64,000 nt of DNA from Myxococcales bacterium (GCA_037446155.1 JBBIJE010000015.1:11318-75317), one strand, 5' to 3'. Counted from the first letter of the stretch, positions 43,988 through 62,386 are shown. Made by a program: numbers and translations. Notes: a model not told the origin generated them from the letters alone.

Positions 43988-45398
43988 TCCGGCGCCGGCC
44001 GGGTCCTCGAAGGATTGCGGCGGCGGCGAGCCAGATCGCCAGCAGGGGAAGAAGGCTTGCGGTCGAATGGGGGAAGAGAAGCTCTCCCACGTTGAAGGAG
44101 TGCCAGTTTTCCGGGGGAGCAAGACGCAGGTACGAAAGCGGCGGCAGATAGTCGTCGAGTCCCTGGGGGTTTACCGAGATCTTGCCTTTCAGGAAGTAGG
44201 CCAGAACGAAGTCGCGAAGCGGATTGCCCAACCCAGCCGGCACCTCGACTCCGACGGCCGTTATTCCCAGCATGAAGGTGATGGATACCAGAGCGAGCGG
44301 GGAAAAGAGCGGGCTCGCTCGCCGCGCAGCCGCCGCGACAGGCAAGAAAAGGAAGGGCAGGCAGGGAACGAGGTAACGGGGCCCCGGCGCCCAGCCGCCC
44401 TGCCAGCCGTGGAAAGAAGAGACGAGGAGGAGGAAGGCTAGTGGCACGAGCGCGCAGACGAGAGCCTGTACCCGGTCCCGGCGCAGCAGCTCCGCCATGC
44501 CCAGGGGGGCCAGCGCGAGCATCGGGCTGGAGAAGAGAATGCCGTGGCGCGGCGAGAGGAGAAGCGCCGCCATCCGCTCGAGCCTAGGCGCTCCGAAGAA
44601 GCGGCCATTTTCGGCCACCATTACGGCGGGATTGGAGTGGGCGTAGCCGGTGGAAAAGGGACTGCCGAAGCAGAGATAGTAATAGATGCCAAGAGCCGCG
44701 AGTGCCGGCAGGCTGCCGGCGAAAACCCAGGGGCACAGCCGCTTCTCGCCCTTCCGAAGGCGTAGAGCGAAGGTGACCGCGGCCAAAACGAGGACGGTGC
44801 TCAGCTCCAGCGCAATCGCTACGCCGAAGGCCGCGCCGGCCGCCAGCGCATAGGCTGCTCCCTTTTCTCTCGTCCGAGCGGCGTTTACCAGCGCTAAGCC
44901 GGCAAAGCTCGAGGCCGCCGCGGGCTGGTGGGCGTAAAAGGCGGTGGCGTAAGGGAAGACGAGGGTCCCGAGCCCGAAGAGGAGCGCCAGCCAGGCACAC
45001 CGAGCCGCGGTGCCGAGCGAAAGGCCCATCAGTGCTCGGTACACCAGAAACCCCAAAAGCGCGCCGCTCGAAGCATTCACGGCAAGATTTGCGGCGTAAG
45101 CGGAGCGCCCGAGTCTCGTGGCCGGTTCGGCTTTGCCATTTAGGCGGTCTGCGATCAGGAAGGCGGGAAGCGCCAAAAACGATAAGCCTGGGCTTTTGTT
45201 CGTGTAGTAATGTCCCCCGTGGTAGGCCCAGTCGCCCGTGTTTCGGACGAAGCGATCTATGACTAGACCGTCGCCGCTTGCCAGCGCGCGAGTGAGGTCG
45301 AGCCGGGAGTTGGGGTTCCAGCCTCCCCCTTGGAAGAAATAAGCATAAGATACCGCTAGGGTAAGGAAGACGAGTATGCCGGCGTTCCGTTCGCGCAC
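43965..45398 (-). CDS. Multi-pass membrane protein, putative GT-C glycosyltransferase
   Basis: NPNSRLDLTRAL, GHYYTNKSPGLSFLALP, GILFSSP, GGWAPGPRYLVP; ~12 TM helices. Confidence 0.6.
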   Translation of the reverse strand: MRERNAGILVFLTLAVSYAYFFQGGGWNPNSRLDLTRALASGDGLVIDRFVRNTGDWAYHGGHYYTNKSPGLSFLALPAFLIADRLNGKAEPATRLGRSAYAANLAVNASSGALLGFLVYRALMGLSLGTAARCAWLALLFGLGTLVFPYATAFYAHQPAAASSFAGLALVNAARTREKGAAYALAAGAAFGVAIALELSTVLVLAAVTFALRLRKGEKRLCPWVFAGSLPALAALGIYYYLCFGSPFSTGYAHSNPAVMVAENGRFFGAPRLERMAALLLSPRHGILFSSPMLALAPLGMAELLRRDRVQALVCALVPLAFLLLVSSFHGWQGGWAPGPRYLVPCLPFLFLPVAAAARRASPLFSPLALVSITFMLGITAVGVEVPAGLGNPLRDFVLAYFLKGKISVNPQGLDDYLPPLSYLRLAPPENWHSFNVGELLFPHSTASLLPLLAIWLAAAAILRGPGRRRINAGHRP

Positions 45399-45411: not shown

Positions 45412-47196
45412 CTACATGGCCGACATGCGCATGAGCATCGGCTGCTTCAGGAGCCAAAGGCTATAGAGGCTAAAGCCGACCATGCCGCAGAGCATCGGAA
45501 CTTGGCTCAGGCGGGCCCGCTTGGGGTCGGCGAACAACTTCCTTGCGCTTTCGCTTGCGGCCCAGAGTCCGTAAACGTGCCCCACGATTATCATCAGAAC
45601 CTGTAGATGCCAGAGGGAGCTCAGCGAAAGCAAGGGCGCAGGGAGGGTGTGTGCGGTTCCGAACAGGTTCCATCCCCAGCCGAAGGGGTCGGACGCGAGC
45701 TTTGTCACCTTCGGTCCCTCGACCAACAAATGCTCCAAGTTGTGCGCGAGGTGGTAAAAGAGCGCAATCGGGAGAAGCGGGTAGGCGAAACGCAGGAAGG
45801 CTTGCTCGTACCGAACGCTGGGATCGGCTGCGAGCCTGCGCCCGAGCTCGACGGTTGCCGCATAAAAGAGCAGGGGAAGGAGAAGGGCAGCCGCCATGCC
45901 GAGCGAAAAAGCTCCCAAACGGTTAGCCCCGAGCGCCGATGCCAGCCTCTCGGTCCACTCCTGCCAGGAAGGGGTCATGGTGAGGCCGTGGAAGGAGGCC
46001 AGGCTGAGCATCGCTATCGCAAGATAAGCCTCGTCGGCGCGCGGCCGCCTTATGCCTGCCAGGTCCGCCCCCCAGGGGCGAAGGTTCAGCCGCAGGTTGT
46101 CGGCCGGACAGGTTTTCAGGCACTCCGAGCAGAGCGTGCAGTAGGTGTTACTAGTGAGGCTACCCGGGAACTCGAACGTCGGGCAGCCGTATCCCCTCGC
46201 GTTTCCGTGCCAGCAGTCCTTGCCTCGGCACGTCTTGCACGTGTGCCGGTCGGCGGGTCTCAGCTCGATTCCGGCGAAGAGAGCGTAGAGCCCGCTTATA
46301 CGTCCTACCAAGCAACCATACCGGCAGAAGGACTTTCGCTCGAAAAGGGCTAGGGAGAGGAAGGTGAGAATCAAAATGAGGAGGCCCAAGTAGGCGGTAA
46401 GCCGGGGCCGCAAGCTCACACCAAAGCCGATCTCGATCCAGGTGAAGCCCAAAAAGAGGATCGTGGCAAGCCAAATGTTCCGAAGGGCCCTCGGCCACGG
46501 CAGTCCGAGCCCCAGGCCCTGCTCGCGCTTCCTCCAAAGCGCAAGTCTTTCGACCCAGGTGGAAAGCGCATCCCAAGGGCACACGTAACACCAGGCCTTG
46601 CCGAAATAGAGGATGAGAATCACGATTCCCGCCCACCAGACGGTCCAGGTGAGACAGGGTGCGATGTTGAGGGCTGGGTTTTGATTACCGAAGAGGCCGG
46701 CCGCGATTATCAGGACAAAGGCCGTGACCGTGGCTAGCTGGCCGCCGAATCTCGCCCTGCGCGACGTGGCAAGGGCGCGAAGGAACCGAAATCTCAGAAG
46801 GTTGAAGCGCGGCGGGGGATCGGAGCTCCGGGTAGTTGCGCGCGATCGGAGGTCGAAGAGAAGAAAGGAAAGGAGCAAAATCGCGGCGCAGGAGAGATAA
46901 TAGAGGCCAGAAGGTAAACCCTCCATCCGATGGGTTTCGGCGTCGCCCGAGTGAGGGCAGGGATGGGCGCTTTCGTGCGTGGCGGCACCCGGGGCGAAGG
47001 AAGGGTGGGCTGTCTCTTCGCTTACGGCCGCCTCGGCTTCCTGGTGGGAAGCGACGTTTTCGCCGCTCACGCCGGCCTGGGCCCCGCCCGAGACGAAAAC
47101 GCCAGCTGGGGGAGAGCCGCTTCGCTCGGCAGCGGCCAGAAGCAGGATCACGACCGGCAGGGCGTAGGGCCAGAAGATCGCAGCAAGCCGTTTCAT
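45412..47196 (-). CDS. 4Fe-4S binding membrane protein (NapH/FixG-like polyferredoxin)
   Basis: WCYVCPW, FCRYGCLVG, CKTCRGKDC, YCTLCSECLKTCP, YHLAHNL; His-containing N-terminal linker. Confidence 0.85.
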   Translation of the reverse strand: MKRLAAIFWPYALPVVILLLAAAERSGSPPAGVFVSGGAQAGVSGENVASHQEAEAAVSEETAHPSFAPGAATHESAHPCPHSGDAETHRMEGLPSGLYYLSCAAILLLSFLLFDLRSRATTRSSDPPPRFNLLRFRFLRALATSRRARFGGQLATVTAFVLIIAAGLFGNQNPALNIAPCLTWTVWWAGIVILILYFGKAWCYVCPWDALSTWVERLALWRKREQGLGLGLPWPRALRNIWLATILFLGFTWIEIGFGVSLRPRLTAYLGLLILILTFLSLALFERKSFCRYGCLVGRISGLYALFAGIELRPADRHTCKTCRGKDCWHGNARGYGCPTFEFPGSLTSNTYCTLCSECLKTCPADNLRLNLRPWGADLAGIRRPRADEAYLAIAMLSLASFHGLTMTPSWQEWTERLASALGANRLGAFSLGMAAALLLPLLFYAATVELGRRLAADPSVRYEQAFLRFAYPLLPIALFYHLAHNLEHLLVEGPKVTKLASDPFGWGWNLFGTAHTLPAPLLSLSSLWHLQVLMIIVGHVYGLWAASESARKLFADPKRARLSQVPMLCGMVGFSLYSLWLLKQPMLMRMSAM

Positions 47197-50223: not shown

Positions 50224-52323
50224 TCACGGCAGCGGGAAAGATCTGCCCACCGCGTCGAGAAGCTCCCCAATTCTCGGAGACTGCTTCTCGGCAAGCTGTT
50301 CAGCTCTCCTCTGGTGCTGGATGCGGATGCAGTCGGCCAGATCCGCGGCCGAAGATAGACTCGGGACGCCGAGCGAGTCGCACTGTGCCGCTTCAGCCAA
50401 GTATCCTAGACCCGTAGGATCTAGTATGTGGCTTGGGAGCAGAGGAGCAGCACCGCAGTTCTTGACGATGGTATTCCTGAGCTTGTCGGCGAGGCCCTGG
50501 CCCGGCGGAAGGGTGATCTTGCCGATCGCCTTGTCGCATTTGCTCTTCGCTTTGTTCACGCATGTCGGATCGGTCGGCTTTTTCTGGATGCAATCGCGGA
50601 CCGCACCCGCGCAGGTCTGAAGGCTCTTTAGGACCCCGAGCGCGAACTTCGCGCCCGCCTTCTTGATCGTCTGCTGGCACTTGACGGCGGCTTTGGCCAC
50701 ATCGGGATTTTGCAGGCCCGCTCCGCCGCCGTTGGCGCCGGCCTCCAGGCACGGGAACTGCTGGTTTGACGCGCCCGCACCGAAAAGGAGATCGAGCATT
50801 TCTGCCGCTCTAGGAGCCTCCTTGGCGAACATCTGCTCTAGCCTGCATTCGTGCTGCAAACCTAGGCACTCGGCCACATCGTCTATCGTGGCGGGGTTTA
50901 CGAATCCGAATAGAGCGCAGCGGTCCGCCTCTCTCGCCGCTCCATGCCCCAGCCCCTGGTTGCTAAGGAGATGGATAGGATCGAGTTGCGGCGGATCGCC
51001 CGGCTTCTTCGGGCCGCAGGCCTTGAGAATATTGATCCTTAGCTTTGCCTCGTCCCCCTTCCCTGGGTTGGTAAGAGAGTCGAGCTGCTTTTGGCACTTA
51101 GCCCGCGCCTTCAGGATGCACTCTGTATCGCCCGGCTTTCTCTGAACACAGGCAAAGGCGGCATCGACGCACTTCTCCAAGCGCTTTAGCTTGGCCGAAG
51201 CAAAGACCCCTCCCGCTTTGCTCATTGCCTTCTCGCACTTCACCGCCGCTTTGGCGGCGTCTCCCGAAAGTCCCGTTCTTCCGCCGTTCGCCCCGGGAGC
51301 GCAGTCGGAGTCTCGACTGTCGATCTGGCCGTCGCCGTCGTTGTCGATGATGTCGAAGCAGTCCTCGGTAACGGGCGTGGGCGAAGGTGAAGGCTGAGTA
51401 GTGGTCGTCGTGGTGCTGGTTGTCGTCGTAGTGGACGTGCTCGTGGACGTACTCGTGCTCGTGGTGGTAGTCGTAGTCGTTGTCGTGCTGGTTGTCGGAC
51501 TGGGGCTCGAAGTCGGTGTCGGAGGAAGCGTTGTCGTTGTACTGGTTGTGGTCGTAGTAGTCGTTGTCGTTGTAGTCGTTGTCGTCGGCGAAGGTGTCGG
51601 AGTAGGCGTCGGTAGCGGAGGCAAGGTTGTCGTCGTCGTGCTCGAAGTCGTCGTGGTGGTGGTCGAGGTCGTGGTGCTCCCGCCACTTACGCAGATATCG
51701 CCGGGGAGCTTGTCGTAGAGGATCGAACCCAAGTCATCCGGGGGGTTTCCGTCGCCGTCTTCGATCGAAATCGTGGAGCAGCCGGCAGTTTTGAGGACCC
51801 CAAAGCACGCCGTTAGCATCGTGGCATCGGCCCCGAGGTTGTCACCGAAAAGCGACGTTGAAGCGGAGCCCATTCGGCCGGGGGCTTTGAATGGGTTAGG
51901 CGTGAAGAGACTAAGGGTTTGACTTGACATGTTAACCGGCACGAGGTCGGCCGGGTCGAAGGTGAGATCGATATCGGTCGTGCTTACCGAGATGGCATTG
52001 CTCGTCTTCACGCTGACACAGCCCTGCGGTGTGCATTTTCCCGCCGCCACGCACTTCCCGATGGGATTTGGAGACTCCTTACACTGGCTGTCGGCGGTGC
52101 ATGCCGTTCCGACCTTCGGTCCTACAACGCACCAGCCCTGCGCGCACTCGGAGTCGCCGGAGCAGAGGACATTGGGATTATTGCTGCAACGGGGTTGATC
52201 GCCTGGGTCCACGGTCGTCCCGGCGACCGAGAGCGTGGTATCCGCTGCCACAGCCCAGGGAGCGGACCAGAGAAGCGTGAGCGCAGTCATGAACACCGTT
52301 GCCCGAGCGCGATTCGTTTTCAT
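50224..52323 (-). CDS. Secreted protein: cohesin-like domain, Thr-rich linker, Ca-binding motif and two helical Cys-rich domains
   Basis: Signal peptide; TLSVAGTTVDPG...IDLTFDPADL...PGRM...MLTACFGV...GDICV; poly-Thr linker; CFDIIDNDGDGQIDSRDSDC; internal ~170-aa duplication. Confidence 0.75.
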   Translation of the reverse strand: MKTNRARATVFMTALTLLWSAPWAVAADTTLSVAGTTVDPGDQPRCSNNPNVLCSGDSECAQGWCVVGPKVGTACTADSQCKESPNPIGKCVAAGKCTPQGCVSVKTSNAISVSTTDIDLTFDPADLVPVNMSSQTLSLFTPNPFKAPGRMGSASTSLFGDNLGADATMLTACFGVLKTAGCSTISIEDGDGNPPDDLGSILYDKLPGDICVSGGSTTTSTTTTTTSSTTTTTLPPLPTPTPTPSPTTTTTTTTTTTTTTSTTTTLPPTPTSSPSPTTSTTTTTTTTTSTSTSTSTSTTTTTSTTTTTTQPSPSPTPVTEDCFDIIDNDGDGQIDSRDSDCAPGANGGRTGLSGDAAKAAVKCEKAMSKAGGVFASAKLKRLEKCVDAAFACVQRKPGDTECILKARAKCQKQLDSLTNPGKGDEAKLRINILKACGPKKPGDPPQLDPIHLLSNQGLGHGAAREADRCALFGFVNPATIDDVAECLGLQHECRLEQMFAKEAPRAAEMLDLLFGAGASNQQFPCLEAGANGGGAGLQNPDVAKAAVKCQQTIKKAGAKFALGVLKSLQTCAGAVRDCIQKKPTDPTCVNKAKSKCDKAIGKITLPPGQGLADKLRNTIVKNCGAAPLLPSHILDPTGLGYLAEAAQCDSLGVPSLSSAADLADCIRIQHQRRAEQLAEKQSPRIGELLDAVGRSFPLP
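51375..51680 (-). repeat. Thr/Ser/Pro-rich linker (~100 aa, low complexity)
   Basis: Degenerate ACN codon runs encoding TTTSTTTTTT...PTPTPTPSP. Confidence 0.85.
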
Positions 52324-52372
52324 TTTTTTACCTCTTTTCCAGTGAATCTGGTTCTCACCTCGAAACCTTTCC

Positions 52373-54481
52373 TCAAGGGCAGCAGGCTCCGAGCGGAGTG
52401 CCGCTCTTCGGAATTAAACTTACGAAGATTCCAAGCGAGCTAAGCGCGTCGTTGGGATCGATCCGGCCGTTCATGTCCCAGTCGGCGACAGAGAGCCTGT
52501 AGCTATTGGTATTGCACGGAGCCGGAAAGTCGGGATCGCCGCACAGGCCTACGAAGAGGCAGAGCTGGGCCAGCGCGTCATTCGGGTCCGGCTGGTTAGG
52601 GCCGCCGCTGCAATCGACGTCCCCCAGGTTCGAGCACTTGACCTTGAGCCGGGGTATGCAGAACCCGTTAAGGCAGGACTCCGTGGTGCATTCGCTTCCG
52701 TCGTCGCAGGGATTGCCGTTCGGCTCGGCGCGGCAGGTGGCGTCGCAGCAGTCGCCACCTAGGGTGTTTCCGTCGTCGCAATCCTCGCCCACCTGGATTA
52801 TCCCATCGCCGCACTCAGGGCAGGCCGGGAGCGCGGGGTTATGGGTAAAAGTAGCGGGCGGCGTGAAGCTCGCACCGCTCATTCCGGGCGCGGTGGTGCG
52901 GTAGAAGATATCTATTGTCCCCGGCACCGTTCCGTTGGCGTTAAAAATCCCCGCCAGCGTCCCCGTGTCGTGGACGGTTACTTTTATGAGGGAGCCCGGT
53001 GCTTGGCCTCGCGCCAACACCTCTGCCGTCGGATCGCTGGTCACCGTGCAGCCGTCTACGATGATCGGACCGGCCTTCCCTGCCCTGGGCGAGCTGGCCG
53101 AGCCGTCCGACTCCAGTATGACCTTGTTGCCGAGCGTCAGGTTCTGTCCCGCCGTAAGACGGATGTCGCCACCCGCCCCACCTCCCGCAAGGCTCCTTGT
53201 GTCCAAGACGAGGCTTGCGGTCGTCGGGCTTGCGATCGTCAGGTCGTTGCCGGCAAACACCTCGAGCACTCCTCCACCACCATCTTTTCCCGCGACGGCG
53301 ATGCTGCTTGCTACGTTTACGTCAGCGCTAGAAAAGATGATCACCTCGCCACCGAAGATCTGCCACCCACTGGAGGCGATTCCCCTGCCGTCGGCGAAAA
53401 TTTCGTCCAGGACGTTGAGTGTGCGCCCCGCCGTAAGAGAGAGCGCGCCGCCGCTACCTCCGCTCTCTCCGAAAGTCCGAAGCTCACCCGACCGAAAATC
53501 CAGATCCCTCCCGGCTTCGATATCGACCTCGCCGCCATCGAAGGATCCCCCGCTGCAATCGATCGCGACCGCGTTGCTCGAGTTTATGAGAACGTCGCGG
53601 CCAGCGAACATGGTCACCTCCCCTCCACTGGTATCCACCCCTACCGGGCTTGCATCGAGCTTACCGAAGAAGTTGATGTCGTTCATGGCCAGCCAATCTG
53701 CGAAACCCGCGTCGCCACAGGCTCCGTCTTCGCTGCATCCGCCCGTTCCCCTGATGCCCACCAAAACCCCGGCATTCAGGAATATGCTCCCGCTGCTAGC
53801 CTCCACCGCGATCTCTCCGCCCCCCCCTCCACCGTTTAGATCGAACGTGCCGCTCATCGTGACATCCCCACTGTTTGACACGAGCGCGATGAACCCGCCC
53901 TCCGACTGACTTCCCCCGGTCGCCAGCAGTTCGCCGCCAGCGCTCAAGTTCCCTTCCGCCTCCACCAATATGAACCCACCGGAGCCATCTGTGCTCGACC
54001 CTTTAGCCCAGATCTTGCCGGTGGTGGTAAACGCTCCTCCCGCCTTCATGACAATCTCGCCCCCGAGCAGATCGTTCGAGACGTCGATCTTCCCGGCGAC
54101 GGTGATGTCTGTCGTCGTCTCTATGGTTATGCGCCCACCGATGATAGTGCTCGAACCCGTGGCCAAGATCTTGCCAGTGCTGGAGACACTCAAGGAAGCC
54201 GCCTTGATCGTGTACATGCCTCGAGATCCCGACGCGGCGTCGAGCGTTCCCGTTACGACCAACGCGCTCGTCCCGAAGTCCAAAACGGAGTTGGGTGTTA
54301 TCACATGCGTGCCCGTGACGGTGCACACGGGTGGAAGACCCGGACAGATGTCGTTTGCCGTGGTCGCGCGCGCGCGCGAAGGTAAAAACACCGCCGCCGC
54401 CGCGACCGCGGTTAGTCCAAGGACCAGAGAAAGGCACCGCGGCGCCTTTTCTCCGATGCGACCAGTTTCCGTGCTCGTCAT
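52373..54481 (-). CDS. Secreted adhesin-like beta-helix protein with Cys-rich repeats and C-terminal dockerin-like domain
   Basis: Signal peptide ending ARA; repeated GGxIxIxAxxxI units; CGDGIIQVGEDCDDGN; GDVDCSG...DPNDAL and ADWDMNGRIDPNDAL. Confidence 0.8.
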   Translation of the reverse strand: MTSTETGRIGEKAPRCLSLVLGLTAVAAAAVFLPSRARATTANDICPGLPPVCTVTGTHVITPNSVLDFGTSALVVTGTLDAASGSRGMYTIKAASLSVSSTGKILATGSSTIIGGRITIETTTDITVAGKIDVSNDLLGGEIVMKAGGAFTTTGKIWAKGSSTDGSGGFILVEAEGNLSAGGELLATGGSQSEGGFIALVSNSGDVTMSGTFDLNGGGGGGEIAVEASSGSIFLNAGVLVGIRGTGGCSEDGACGDAGFADWLAMNDINFFGKLDASPVGVDTSGGEVTMFAGRDVLINSSNAVAIDCSGGSFDGGEVDIEAGRDLDFRSGELRTFGESGGSGGALSLTAGRTLNVLDEIFADGRGIASSGWQIFGGEVIIFSSADVNVASSIAVAGKDGGGGVLEVFAGNDLTIASPTTASLVLDTRSLAGGGAGGDIRLTAGQNLTLGNKVILESDGSASSPRAGKAGPIIVDGCTVTSDPTAEVLARGQAPGSLIKVTVHDTGTLAGIFNANGTVPGTIDIFYRTTAPGMSGASFTPPATFTHNPALPACPECGDGIIQVGEDCDDGNTLGGDCCDATCRAEPNGNPCDDGSECTTESCLNGFCIPRLKVKCSNLGDVDCSGGPNQPDPNDALAQLCLFVGLCGDPDFPAPCNTNSYRLSVADWDMNGRIDPNDALSSLGIFVSLIPKSGTPLGACCP

Positions 54482-60590: not shown

Positions 60591-61580
60591 CTAAGGATTG
60601 GGGATTGTGGCGTCGAGGAACTTGAAGTACTCCACGTCGTCGTCGGGGAACTCGAAAATGTCCCCGTCCGGGCCTCGGATAGTATCCGGGCCCGGCTTTA
60701 TCCCGGATATGTCCACTCCAGGGTCGGTGCTGTTGAACGCAAACGTTGCTGTGTCGCTGCCCGTTCCGCCGCGGATCTGATCGACTTCCACTTGGCCCTC
60801 GATTTCTTCTGCCCTGCCGAGCTCGATGACGTCGTCGTTTGGGCCAGAATCGACCGAGTCATTGCCCCTGTTCGGGGTAACGAGGTCGGTGCCGCTTCCC
60901 GCAAGAATGCTGTCGTCGTCGGCCCCCCCTCGCAAGATATCGTTGCCCGATCCTCCGTCCATAACGTCGCTGCCCGGCCCCCCGATGATTACGTCGTCTC
61001 CATTCCCCCCGTTTAGCGTGTCGTTTCCCTTCCCCCCGATTATCCCATCCTGCCCGTCACTGCCGTTTATGGTATCGTCGTCCTCCCGACCTTCGATGAT
61101 ATCCGACCCGCTTCCACCGGTGATCAGGTCGTTCCCCAGTCCCGCGGACACGACGTTCTCCCCCTCGCCGGCAGCAATTGTATCCGCGCCATGGCTTCCT
61201 AGGATCGCGTCATCGCCCAAACCCCCATCGATGTTGTCATTTCCCTTGCCGCCGCTGATACTGTCGTTTCCGTCGCCCCCCTCGATCAGGTTCGCGTCGC
61301 GCGAGCGATCGGCGCTGATGATATCGTTACCCGCTTCCCCTTTCAGTACGTTAAGGCCTTTGCTTCCCTCTATTATGTCCGGCCCGTCTCGTCCCTCGAG
61401 GGTGTCGTTACCTTTCCGACCCTCGAGGATGTCGCTTCCCGCCGTGCCGATAAACACATCATCGAAGTTCGTGCCGACGCAAATGGGAGGGCAAGTCGCG
61501 GGAACGATCGATTGTGCCCACGCCGTGCTGCCCGGCATGCAGAGCAGCCCAAATACGATCGGCAGTTTCGCCAGCCTCAC
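60591..61580 (-). CDS. Calcium-binding RTX-like (GGxGxD) repeat protein with signal peptide
   Basis: GTGA-coupled start at 61580 (the track ATG at 61595 is an alternative); signal peptide ending AWA; ~20 nonapeptide repeats. Confidence 0.85.
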   Translation of the reverse strand: MRLAKLPIVFGLLCMPGSTAWAQSIVPATCPPICVGTNFDDVFIGTAGSDILEGRKGNDTLEGRDGPDIIEGSKGLNVLKGEAGNDIISADRSRDANLIEGGDGNDSISGGKGNDNIDGGLGDDAILGSHGADTIAAGEGENVVSAGLGNDLITGGSGSDIIEGREDDDTINGSDGQDGIIGGKGNDTLNGGNGDDVIIGGPGSDVMDGGSGNDILRGGADDDSILAGSGTDLVTPNRGNDSVDSGPNDDVIELGRAEEIEGQVEVDQIRGGTGSDTATFAFNSTDPGVDISGIKPGPDTIRGPDGDIFEFPDDDVEYFKFLDATIPNP

Positions 61581-62386
61581 GGTGCGAAGGTACATATCTC
61601 TACCGTTCCGTCGAACTTGTATACGTCGTTTCCACCCGAGTCGGGGCCGATCACGTAGTCGGGGCAGTTGTTGACCACCCCCTGAGCGGGGTCGTCTTGA
61701 AAACCGAAGTCGGCCGTATCCGACCCCGCCCCACCGAAAACGAGATTGATTTCCGCGTCACCGTCGACATTCTCCGGATAGTCTCCAAGGACAATCGTAT
61801 CGTTTCCATCTTCCCCAAAAATTATGTCGCTTCCCACCCCGCCTCGCAGGACATCGTCGCCAGCCCCCCCCCTCACTACGTCGTCGCCAGGGCCGCTTCC
61901 GATGGTATCGGCGCCGTCGCCTCCCGAGACTATGTCCCAGCCGTCGCCCGACGAGATTGTGTCGGCGCCGTCGCCGCCGTCGATGATGTCCTGTCCCTTG
62001 TCCGATGTGACGACGTCGTCGCCGGAACCGCCGACGATTATGTCGCCAGTCCTACCGCTCCGGAGAATGTCCGCACCCGGTCCCCCATCGAGCAAGTTGC
62101 GGCCCCGGCCCCGTTCGACGAGCTCGTCGTCTCCATCCCCGCCGAACAGCAGGTCGTTCTTGCCATTGCCTTCCGCGTTATCGCGGCCATCGCCGGCGGA
62201 GATCAGGTCCCTGCCGCCGCCCCCGAAAATATCATCGCCCGCTGCCGAGCCGGTAATTTCGTCGTTGCCGCTCGTGCCGATGATCGTAGCTGCCTGGAGA
62301 ACGCCGACATAGGGGAAAGTCAGGACCGCGCTGATCGCTGCTCCTACAAGCAGAGCCCCCGTCCGCGTGAGGCGCAACCTTCTCAC
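61577..62386 (-). CDS. Calcium-binding RTX-like (GGxGxD) repeat protein with signal peptide
   Basis: Signal peptide ending LQA; tandem GGDGADTI-type repeats; C-terminus paralogous to that of the neighbouring RTX gene. Confidence 0.85.
   Translation of the reverse strand: MRRLRLTRTGALLVGAAISAVLTFPYVGVLQAATIIGTSGNDEITGSAAGDDIFGGGGRDLISAGDGRDNAEGNGKNDLLFGGDGDDELVERGRGRNLLDGGPGADILRSGRTGDIIVGGSGDDVVTSDKGQDIIDGGDGADTISSGDGWDIVSGGDGADTIGSGPGDDVVRGGAGDDVLRGGVGSDIIFGEDGNDTIVLGDYPENVDGDAEINLVFGGAGSDTADFGFQDDPAQGVVNNCPDYVIGPDSGGNDVYKFDGTVEICTFAP

Follow-up and report, generated by a model that had tools for sequence, protein, structure and literature searches.

What would a dockerin and a cohesin join when they are encoded side by side outside a cellulosome? 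The question is raised by a locus of an uncultured Myxococcales bacterium (GCA_037446155.1), which lies within a stretch of 64,000 nucleotides (JBBIJE010000015.1:11318-75317), hereafter the window, and comprises two genes on the same strand separated by 49 bases: P1 (P0001), an open reading frame (ORF) of 702 amino acids at 52373-54481 (-), and P2 (P0002), an ORF of 699 amino acids at 50224-52323 (-). Unless a contig is named, coordinates are window positions, and all the features so located are on the minus strand. A model that had been given the window alone (the sequence-only reading) had proposed that P1 ends in a dockerin and that P2 starts with a cohesin; both ORFs and the motifs quoted for them are found where it had placed them. 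Here, we report that a dockerin and a cohesin, each of them very divergent, are encoded by the neighbouring genes P1 and P2. Above Pfam cut-offs, the genome (3.48 Mb, 39 contigs, completeness 100) has two matches of the Omp85/BamA type and one to LptD, so that the label "diderm", which had been presumed for the host, is a fair one.

The C-Terminal Module of P1

The last module of P1 (residues 617-702; 52376..52633), a Cys-rich module with a predicted dockerin fold, contains two repeats separated by a linker of ~20 residues. The first (residues 620-645; 52547..52624) combines a 15-residue Ca-loop-like segment with a helix, and the second (residues 666-688; 52418..52486) a helix with a canonical 12-residue EF-hand-type loop, in which Asp or Asn occupies positions 1, 3, 5, 9, and 12 and Gly position 6. 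Over their helix segments, the repeats agree at 8 of 13 positions, and the tandem loop-helix duplication by which dockerins are recognized is present in P1. This double motif is far above chance: a regular expression for loop plus helix matches 5 of the 31,875 six-frame ORFs of at least 60 amino acids in the genome, and matches twice only in P1 and in one paralog on contig C3.

An alignment (A1) of the module with its relatives comprises 12 rows, and the resulting profile covers residues 617-702 of P1. Invariant in its first half are the Gly-Asp that opens loop 1, a Cys within loop 1, the Asp that opens helix 1, and a Pro-Cys in the linker; in its second half, the Asp-Trp that opens loop 2, the Gly of loop 2, the Asp-Ala that opens helix 2, and a C-terminal Cys. 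Loop 2 has 12 residues in all 12 rows, and loop 1 has 12 residues in seven rows and 13 in two, with 15 in P1 and both of its orthologs. The longer first loop of P1 is due to an insert (present in 3 of the 12 rows), which the sequence-only reading had rightly noticed but bracketed as four residues, when the alignment gives three. The orthologs (P0003 and P0004, among 38 candidates) are 85% and 89% identical to the P1 tail, and the single paralog in the genome (C3:85744-86022) is 54% identical. Both P1 repeats do carry the same Pro-Asn pair in the two residues before the Asp that starts the helix, but the dual mode of binding with which this identity had been called consistent does not find support in the family, where a pair common to both repeats occurs at that position in 4 of the 12 rows, neither close ortholog of P1 being among them.

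The dockerin three-helix fold of the modelled tail is clear from structure comparison. The AlphaFold2 (AF2) model has a predicted local distance difference test (pLDDT) score of 91.5 and a predicted template modelling (pTM) score of 0.82, to be read, like those of the P2 model below, as scores of a prediction from a shallow alignment by a fold predictor that has seen solved dockerins. With this model, Foldseek returned dockerins at all of ranks 1-22, the best being 4uyq_B (E-value 8.5e-3, TM-score 0.73, root-mean-square deviation [rmsd] 2.1 Å over 73 columns, 29% identity), and VIA-align, which is independent of Foldseek, placed dockerins at ranks 1-13 (Z 8.4-4.4, the next row having Z 2.4), with its best rows covering the whole target. 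Sequence support for dockerin homology, on the other side, is weak. With hhalign against six classical dockerins, aligned ad hoc, both loops fall in register (P-value 4.7e-4, probability 32%); the A1 profile gives weak matches among Protein Data Bank (PDB) sequences, the best dockerin being 4uyp_B (E 0.079, both repeats in register) and 5 of the 10 matches being holders of dockerins; and a single-sequence PDB search with the tail found nothing meaningful. Taken with the predicted fold, which bears out the dockerin first read from the sequence, these data make a Cys-rich dockerin subfamily outside current family models the most fitting description of the P1 tail.

The N-Terminal Domain of P2

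For P2, homology and predicted fold agree that the N-terminal domain (residues 27-212; 51688..52245) is a cohesin, as had been proposed, albeit a divergent one. Against 1.84 billion representatives, a phmmer search with residues 27-216 gave 20 matches at E ≤0.001 (best 4.6e-15), which span the part behind a Cys-rich stretch. The top 18 (P0005-P0022) were confirmed as members of the cohesin family by a local subfamily profile, and the last two have Calx-beta or CUB domains and no cohesin. Pfam Cohesin matches 16 of the 18 confirmed homologs at E ≤0.01, 12 of them above its 24.1-bit cut-off, and in the single-cohesin proteins P0009, P0012, P0015, P0016, and P0017 the stretch that it matches coincides with the stretch matched by P2. 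A second alignment (A2) joins the window domain with nine homologous domains that are 33-44% identical to it. The Cys-rich stretch (residues ~44-99; 52027..52194) appears there as an insert of ~56 residues between the first two aligned cohesin segments and is a gap in all nine other rows.

A single-sequence PDB search with the P2 domain found nothing meaningful, and the A2 profile matched solved cohesins, namely 3ul4_A (1.3e-4) and 2xdh_A from Archaeoglobus (5.7e-4), followed by 4ums_A, 1aoh_A, 3kcp_A, and the NagJ cohesins of Clostridium perfringens. Polyubiquitin rows in the same list are sums over repeats in which no single stretch passes. The AF2 model built from A2 (pLDDT 81.8, with 62-71 in the insert; pTM 0.74) retrieved 45 PDB chains at E ≤0.001 with Foldseek, all cohesins among the matches listed (best 6kgf_C, 1.2e-7). 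When the model was compared by VIA-align, without Foldseek, with 48,161 representative chains, cohesins held ranks 1-20 (Z 15.1-10.1, rmsd 1.8-2.9 Å over 119-128 residues), and were followed by an adhesin CLIPPER domain (Z 10.0) and by pilin-type sandwiches (Z ≤9). As a separate observation, a second kind of cohesin in the metagenomic proteins P0008 and P0013 seems, by eye, to carry a short four-Cys motif like the start of the window insert.

Do the Two Modules Bind?

On the combined grounds of fused paralogs, a sole genomic cohesin, and the co-occurrence of both modules in homologs, we consider it probable that the P1 dockerin and the P2 cohesin bind as described below, the interaction being a predicted one. 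Regarding the first of these grounds, two proteins encoded elsewhere in the genome (C4:216352-219810, 1153 amino acids; C3:173530-176850, 1107 amino acids) align to P1 residues 45-633 and 45-617, respectively, and, in a later part of the chain, to P2 residues 351-696 and 356-696. They have the same kind of head as P1 and the same twin domain as P2 (32-35% identity), covalently linked, the two parts being separated by a Pro/Thr linker and by motifs of Cys-rich and acidic type (Pfam Cu-binding_MopE). The split pair keeps the order of parts of these fused paralogs, and its dockerin, cohesin, and Thr stalk occupy the place of the linker.

Regarding the second, the only genomic cohesin that the A2 profile detects is the one in P2 (the match after it has an E-value of 0.32), and the dockerin type of A1 is present in two copies, in P1 and in the C3 paralog. 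If these dockerins have a partner in the cell, P2 is therefore the only candidate seen. Regarding the third, 9 of the 18 metagenomic cohesin homologs (P0005, P0007, P0010, P0012, P0013, P0014, P0015, P0019, and P0021) contain a dockerin of the tail type; eight of these nine copies served to build the profile, and that of P0021, which was left out, scores 4.2e-25. The order is cohesin-dockerin-cohesin in P0005, P0007, P0010, P0013, P0014, and P0019, chains that could bind head to tail into polymers or networks, and cohesin, Cys repeats, dockerin in P0012 and P0015. P0012 also has a propeller of the glucose/sorbosone-dehydrogenase type joined to these three parts. The spacing of P1 and P2, 49 bases on one strand, likewise speaks for a pair.

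We accordingly propose no more than the following arrangement, in which P1 and P2 would be two halves of one secreted modular protein, joined non-covalently. P1 would contribute a Gly-rich head, a Cys-rich repeat, and a disulfide-rich dockerin with two Ca-loop/helix repeats and a Pro-Cys at the core of its linker; P2 would contribute the divergent cohesin, followed by a Thr-rich stalk, an acidic Cys repeat, and tandem helical Cys domains. After Sec export, the P1 dockerin would plug into the P2 cohesin, and the complex would recreate the layout of the two single-chain paralogs, from head through Cys repeats and linker to twin domain. The same cohesin could also take the second dockerin-bearing head, that of contig C3, and the head would then be exchangeable. 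What the analysis establishes is how the genes are built, which domains are homologous, which folds are predicted, which paralogs are fused, and how many copies of each module there are; we infer the binding and its Ca dependence, the disulfides, an export that goes past the inner membrane, and whatever adhesive role the pair may have.

Several results weigh against this proposal. Neither module is seen by the family model that bears its name, whether the flanking sequence is kept or removed, and the Pfam check that had been suggested for both therefore came back empty: Dockerin_1 (cut-off 22.9 bits) finds nothing in full-length P1 at E ≤1 or in the tail alone at E ≤10, and Cohesin (24.1 bits) finds nothing in P2 at E ≤1, nor in its N-terminal domain alone or anywhere in the genome at E ≤10. 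Dockerin_1 is no better on the relatives, matching 3 of the 12 A1 members weakly (best E 0.1). In sequence, the first Ca loop of P1 has 15 residues instead of 12, and the P2 cohesin does not have a 9-residue Pro-rich segment near its end that is present in all nine other A2 rows. The extra residues of loop 1, the P2 insert, and the lost Pro-rich segment could each change binding, and the P2 changes could abolish it. No anchor module of any kind is named in P2 by Pfam or NCBIfam, and nothing in the data points to exposure on the cell surface, where the sequence-only reading had put the complex. A complex prediction that combined the cohesin alignment, the dockerin alignment, and two Ca ions, run with controls absent, gave scores of 0.23 and 0.21, for a mark of 0.32, and counts neither for the proposal nor against it.

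The distribution of the two modules points in the same direction. No cohesin gene adjoins the tail-sharing C3 paralog, which has transporter and histidine-kinase genes as its neighbours. A P2-cohesin ortholog was found neither among 1105 word-index candidates nor, above 35% identity, among the 1.84 billion representatives; conservation of the P1-P2 pair finds no support in these searches, although P1 has two orthologs. Contig searches, which count on neither side, gave six loci with P1 and, among metagenome contigs, four with its ortholog P0003, all of them matching the Cys-rich repeat only, and 0 of 175 pattern matches with P2 on metagenome contigs were confirmed. Searches of 40 relatives (same order or class) and of 300 sampled genomes of the phylum (E ≤1e-5) did not detect the dockerin type, which makes co-occurrence across relatives unusable as evidence.

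The alternative that best withstands the data is that P1 and P2 have a real dockerin and a real cohesin that are not partners, the dockerin having as its ligand a glycan or a cohesin that belongs to a different cell or organism, or having no ligand, and the genes being adjacent through a clustering of Cys-rich secreted genes. The solitary C3 paralog, the orthologs found for P1 and not for P2, and the row of four secreted Cys-rich proteins at the locus would all be in keeping with it, as would the statement of a review (PMC5244752) that the function of such modules outside the cellulosome is not known. It has to contend, however, with paralogs that unite the same types of head and base in one chain, with half of the 18 cohesin homologs uniting this cohesin subfamily and this dockerin type in one chain, and with P2 having the only cohesin detectable in the genome; we regard it as unlikely, while keeping it in serious consideration.

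The tail might otherwise be a C-terminal cap stabilized by Ca and disulfides, or an export or sorting tag, with a dockerin-like fold and no protein partner. It is C-terminal in P1, the C3 paralog, P0003, P0004, P0012, and P0015, where it ends in a conserved Cys or Cys-Cys, and Dockerin_1 misses it. However, the same module is internal, between two cohesins, in the six cohesin-dockerin-cohesin chains listed above, where a C-terminal sorting signal could not sit, and a genome that used it as a general sorting tag should have far more than the two copies seen here, which makes this explanation improbable. Finally, that the P2 domain is a generic Ig-like or adhesin β-sandwich with a mere resemblance of fold, as the silence of Pfam Cohesin and the Z-scores of 8-10 of adhesin and pilin sandwiches such as the CLIPPER domain might suggest, is very hard to believe given its sequence homology to proteins above the Cohesin cut-off, the sequence matches of the A2 profile to solved cohesins, and the hold of cohesins on the top 20 structural ranks. 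Binding between the P1 dockerin and the P2 cohesin is the reading that we retain as the probable one.

Remaining Domains of P1 and P2

P1 starts with a signal peptide that appears by eye to be of the Sec type (residues 1-39; 54365..54481), with Ala-x-Ala before residue 40. It is followed by a Gly-rich, repetitive head (residues 40-550; 52832..54364), a presumed β-helix that is 27-32% identical to the heads of four paralogs. The head has no match in Pfam or NCBIfam and no PDB sequence match, and its score of 0.82 against the ESM Atlas is at chance level. The cargo had been taken for an adhesin-like β-helix rather than a glycoside hydrolase; the second half of this statement holds, when the first finds no match in family models, PDB, or Atlas. 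Between head and tail stands a Cys-rich acidic repeat of the myxo_disulf_rpt/DUF4215 type (residues 554-616; 52634..52822), with 31.5 bits for TIGR02232 (cut-off 20.8) and 25.8 bits for DUF4215 (cut-off 27).

In P2, the arrangement that had been described, with its quoted β-strand motifs, a stalk of about a hundred residues, and two helical Cys domains, was recovered in full. A putative Sec-type signal peptide, assigned by eye (residues 1-26; 52246..52323), precedes the cohesin, behind which comes a stalk of ~105 residues rich in Thr, Pro, and Ser (residues 213-317; 51373..51687), encoded by imperfect short DNA repeats with a period of 9-18 and 66-93% matches. Residues 318-342 (51298..51372) form an acidic double-disulfide or EF-hand-like repeat according to weak family matches (NF033662, 26.2 bits, below its cut-off of 41; EF-hand_5, E 0.026), and similar acidic Cys motifs (Cu-binding_MopE) precede the twin domain in the fused paralogs. 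The twin domain itself consists of copy A (residues 345-525; 50749..51291), which belongs to no Pfam family, and the homologous copy B (residues 530-699; 50227..50736), the two being duplicates of each other (phmmer 3.3e-31).

The twin domain, a candidate for the anchor of P2, matches no described family. Its 23 database homologs (26-43% identity) have it at the C-terminus in 14 cases, at the N-terminus in six, and as nearly the whole protein in three, and it is joined covalently in homologs to heads of the Beta_helix, Chlam_PMP, FG-GAP, DUF5122, DUF1554, or NHL type; none of the 23 contains a cohesin or a tail-type dockerin. In the genome, the helical Cys family is expanded, with 13 ORFs found by a four-round jackhmmer search of a small local database, often as tandem pairs. 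An ESM Atlas search with the twin domain reached 0.88 to unnamed clusters, with Binatota and Myxococcota as the commonest taxa, which serves as a lead only.

The Locus and Its Neighbours

As context, the gene next to P2 after a small gap is P3 (48498..50294), for a secreted protein with DUF7453/NxxGxxAF repeats, and is followed by P4 (47764..48609), a small protein that combines Dicty_CTDC Cys repeats with an N-terminal domain distantly related to the helical Cys family of P2, of which it is one of the 13 ORFs (6.3e-6 in jackhmmer round 4, same local database). The region immediately upstream of P1 (54522-58769 and 58775-60160), in the same orientation and with small gaps, encodes two glycosyltransferases, of the GT4 and GT2 types, and two proteins of the sulfatase family. 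These glycosyltransferases and sulfatases may have a role in decorating the Thr-rich stalk or in surface polysaccharide; O-glycosylation of the stalk by the adjacent glycosyltransferases is speculation on our part.

Farther along, 60594-61757 encodes another secreted Ca-binding protein near the cluster, of 388 amino acids and with eight stretches of RTX Ca-binding nonapeptides (HemolysinCabind, 4.6e-52). On the other side, 45412-47196 encodes a membrane protein of 594 amino acids with many Cys-x-x-Cys motifs and no Pfam match at 1e-5, which adjoins a YtkA-like small protein (E 0.076). Between positions 45000 and 59500, one promoter-like site was found for 2.3 expected, and 18 terminator-like sites for 13.7 ± 3.9 expected, counts that offer no guide to operon structure. 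Three DNA runs from one subsurface-metagenome study contain the stretch wholly or partly, and no RNA run containing it is listed.

A third candidate ligand for the single cohesin of the genome possibly exists on contig C22. The genome scan with Dockerin_1 gave six matches at E ≤10, none of them on the P1 tail and one above the cut-off (27.2 bits, or 21.8 bits when the whole frame is scored), which is the only Pfam-detectable dockerin in the genome. This classical dockerin is internal to an 886-amino-acid frame at C22:231-2888 (+) with a HEIGH-type metallopeptidase signature (Peptidase_M57, 3.8e-6; Peptidase_M10, 3.4e-5).

Relation to Known Systems

The closest structural counterparts of both modules are the type I pairs of clostridial cellulosomes (1ohz, 2ccl, 4dh2, 5nrk, and 4uyp/4uyq), to which the predicted model of the P1 dockerin compares with Z 8.4-7.6 and an rmsd of 2.0-2.2 Å over 62-70 residues, and the predicted model of the P2 cohesin with Z 15.1-13.5. 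The P1 tail has in common with type I dockerins the duplicated loop-helix, the linker of ~20 residues, and the 12-residue EF-hand second loop; unlike them, the P1 type has invariant Cys (loop 1, linker, C-terminus), and Dockerin_1 is blind to it. Unlike clostridial scaffoldins, P2 has one cohesin and no array, and this cohesin has a 56-residue Cys-rich insert, of a kind that may be recurring in its group. The setting differs as well: the host is a diderm, P1 and P2 have no glycoside hydrolase or carbohydrate-binding module (CBM), and Pfam and NCBIfam name no such domain in P1 or in the C3 dockerin-bearing paralog, so that the dockerins on carbohydrate-active enzymes that define a cellulosome are not what is found here. 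P2 had also been likened to an anchoring scaffoldin; neither S-layer homology (SLH) repeats nor a sortase signal is named behind its cohesin, and the comparison does not hold on this point.

Cohesin and dockerin modules outside cellulosomes, which have long been catalogued, were reportedly surveyed by Peer et al. 2009, and include 2xdh, a cohesin of Archaeoglobus fulgidus, and 2ozn, from Clostridium perfringens NagJ/NagH, are like P1 and P2 in having no cellulose-degrading context. The Archaeoglobus cohesin matches P2 both by profile (5.7e-4) and by structure (Z 13.7), and the 2ozn dockerin matches the P1 tail at Z 4.4. Unlike these modules, P1 and P2 are Cys-rich, and paralogs supply both parts of the cargo as one chain, which leads to a specific hypothesis for the purpose of the P1-P2 pair.

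An adhesive role has been proposed for adjacent cohesin and dockerin proteins of diderm syntrophic sulfate reducers, and of anaerobic methanotrophic (ANME) archaea, on the basis of domain annotation and expression rather than of binding assays (PMC10553843, PMC5244752). Because of this proposal, a cohesin-dockerin pair in a non-cellulolytic diderm is not new in kind. Those proteins were found by standard domain annotation, while P1 and P2 escape Pfam, and an overlap of the present subfamily with the adhesins tabulated there (table S10) is possible. In the accessible literature, whose supplementary tables may hold relevant proteins, we found no description of this Cys-rich dockerin/cohesin subfamily. 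What is new here is a Cys-rich dockerin type missed by Pfam, a cohesin with a Cys-rich insert, and the split-versus-fused relation of the pair to its paralogs.

Possible Meaning of the Split Pair

Since Pfam misses both the Cys-rich dockerin type and the P2 cohesin, Pfam-based surveys undercount such systems. From a broader perspective, the split-versus-fused relation says what the P1-P2 joint connects: the products of sister genes have a repetitive head covalently linked to a twin helical base, and in P1 and P2 the dockerin and the cohesin take the place of that linker. The predicted complex has in these products a known single-chain equivalent with which it can be compared, and the locus thereby offers one non-cellulosomal cohesin-dockerin pair a concrete, testable purpose. 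A disulfide-stabilized pair from a diderm might also interest builders of protein scaffolds.

On a more tentative note, we put forward as a possibility, short of a probable one, that a hitherto unannotated, disulfide-stapled cohesin-dockerin subfamily could be the plug-and-socket joint by which uncultured diderm bacteria connect extracellular proteins. In this genome, the single P2 base would take P1, the C3 paralog, and perhaps the metallopeptidase as interchangeable heads, the paralogs having the same architecture hard-wired, and in other organisms cohesin-dockerin-cohesin chains of the subfamily would self-assemble into polymers. If true, this would provide a natural case in which the purpose of a non-cellulosomal pair can be read from its fused relatives.

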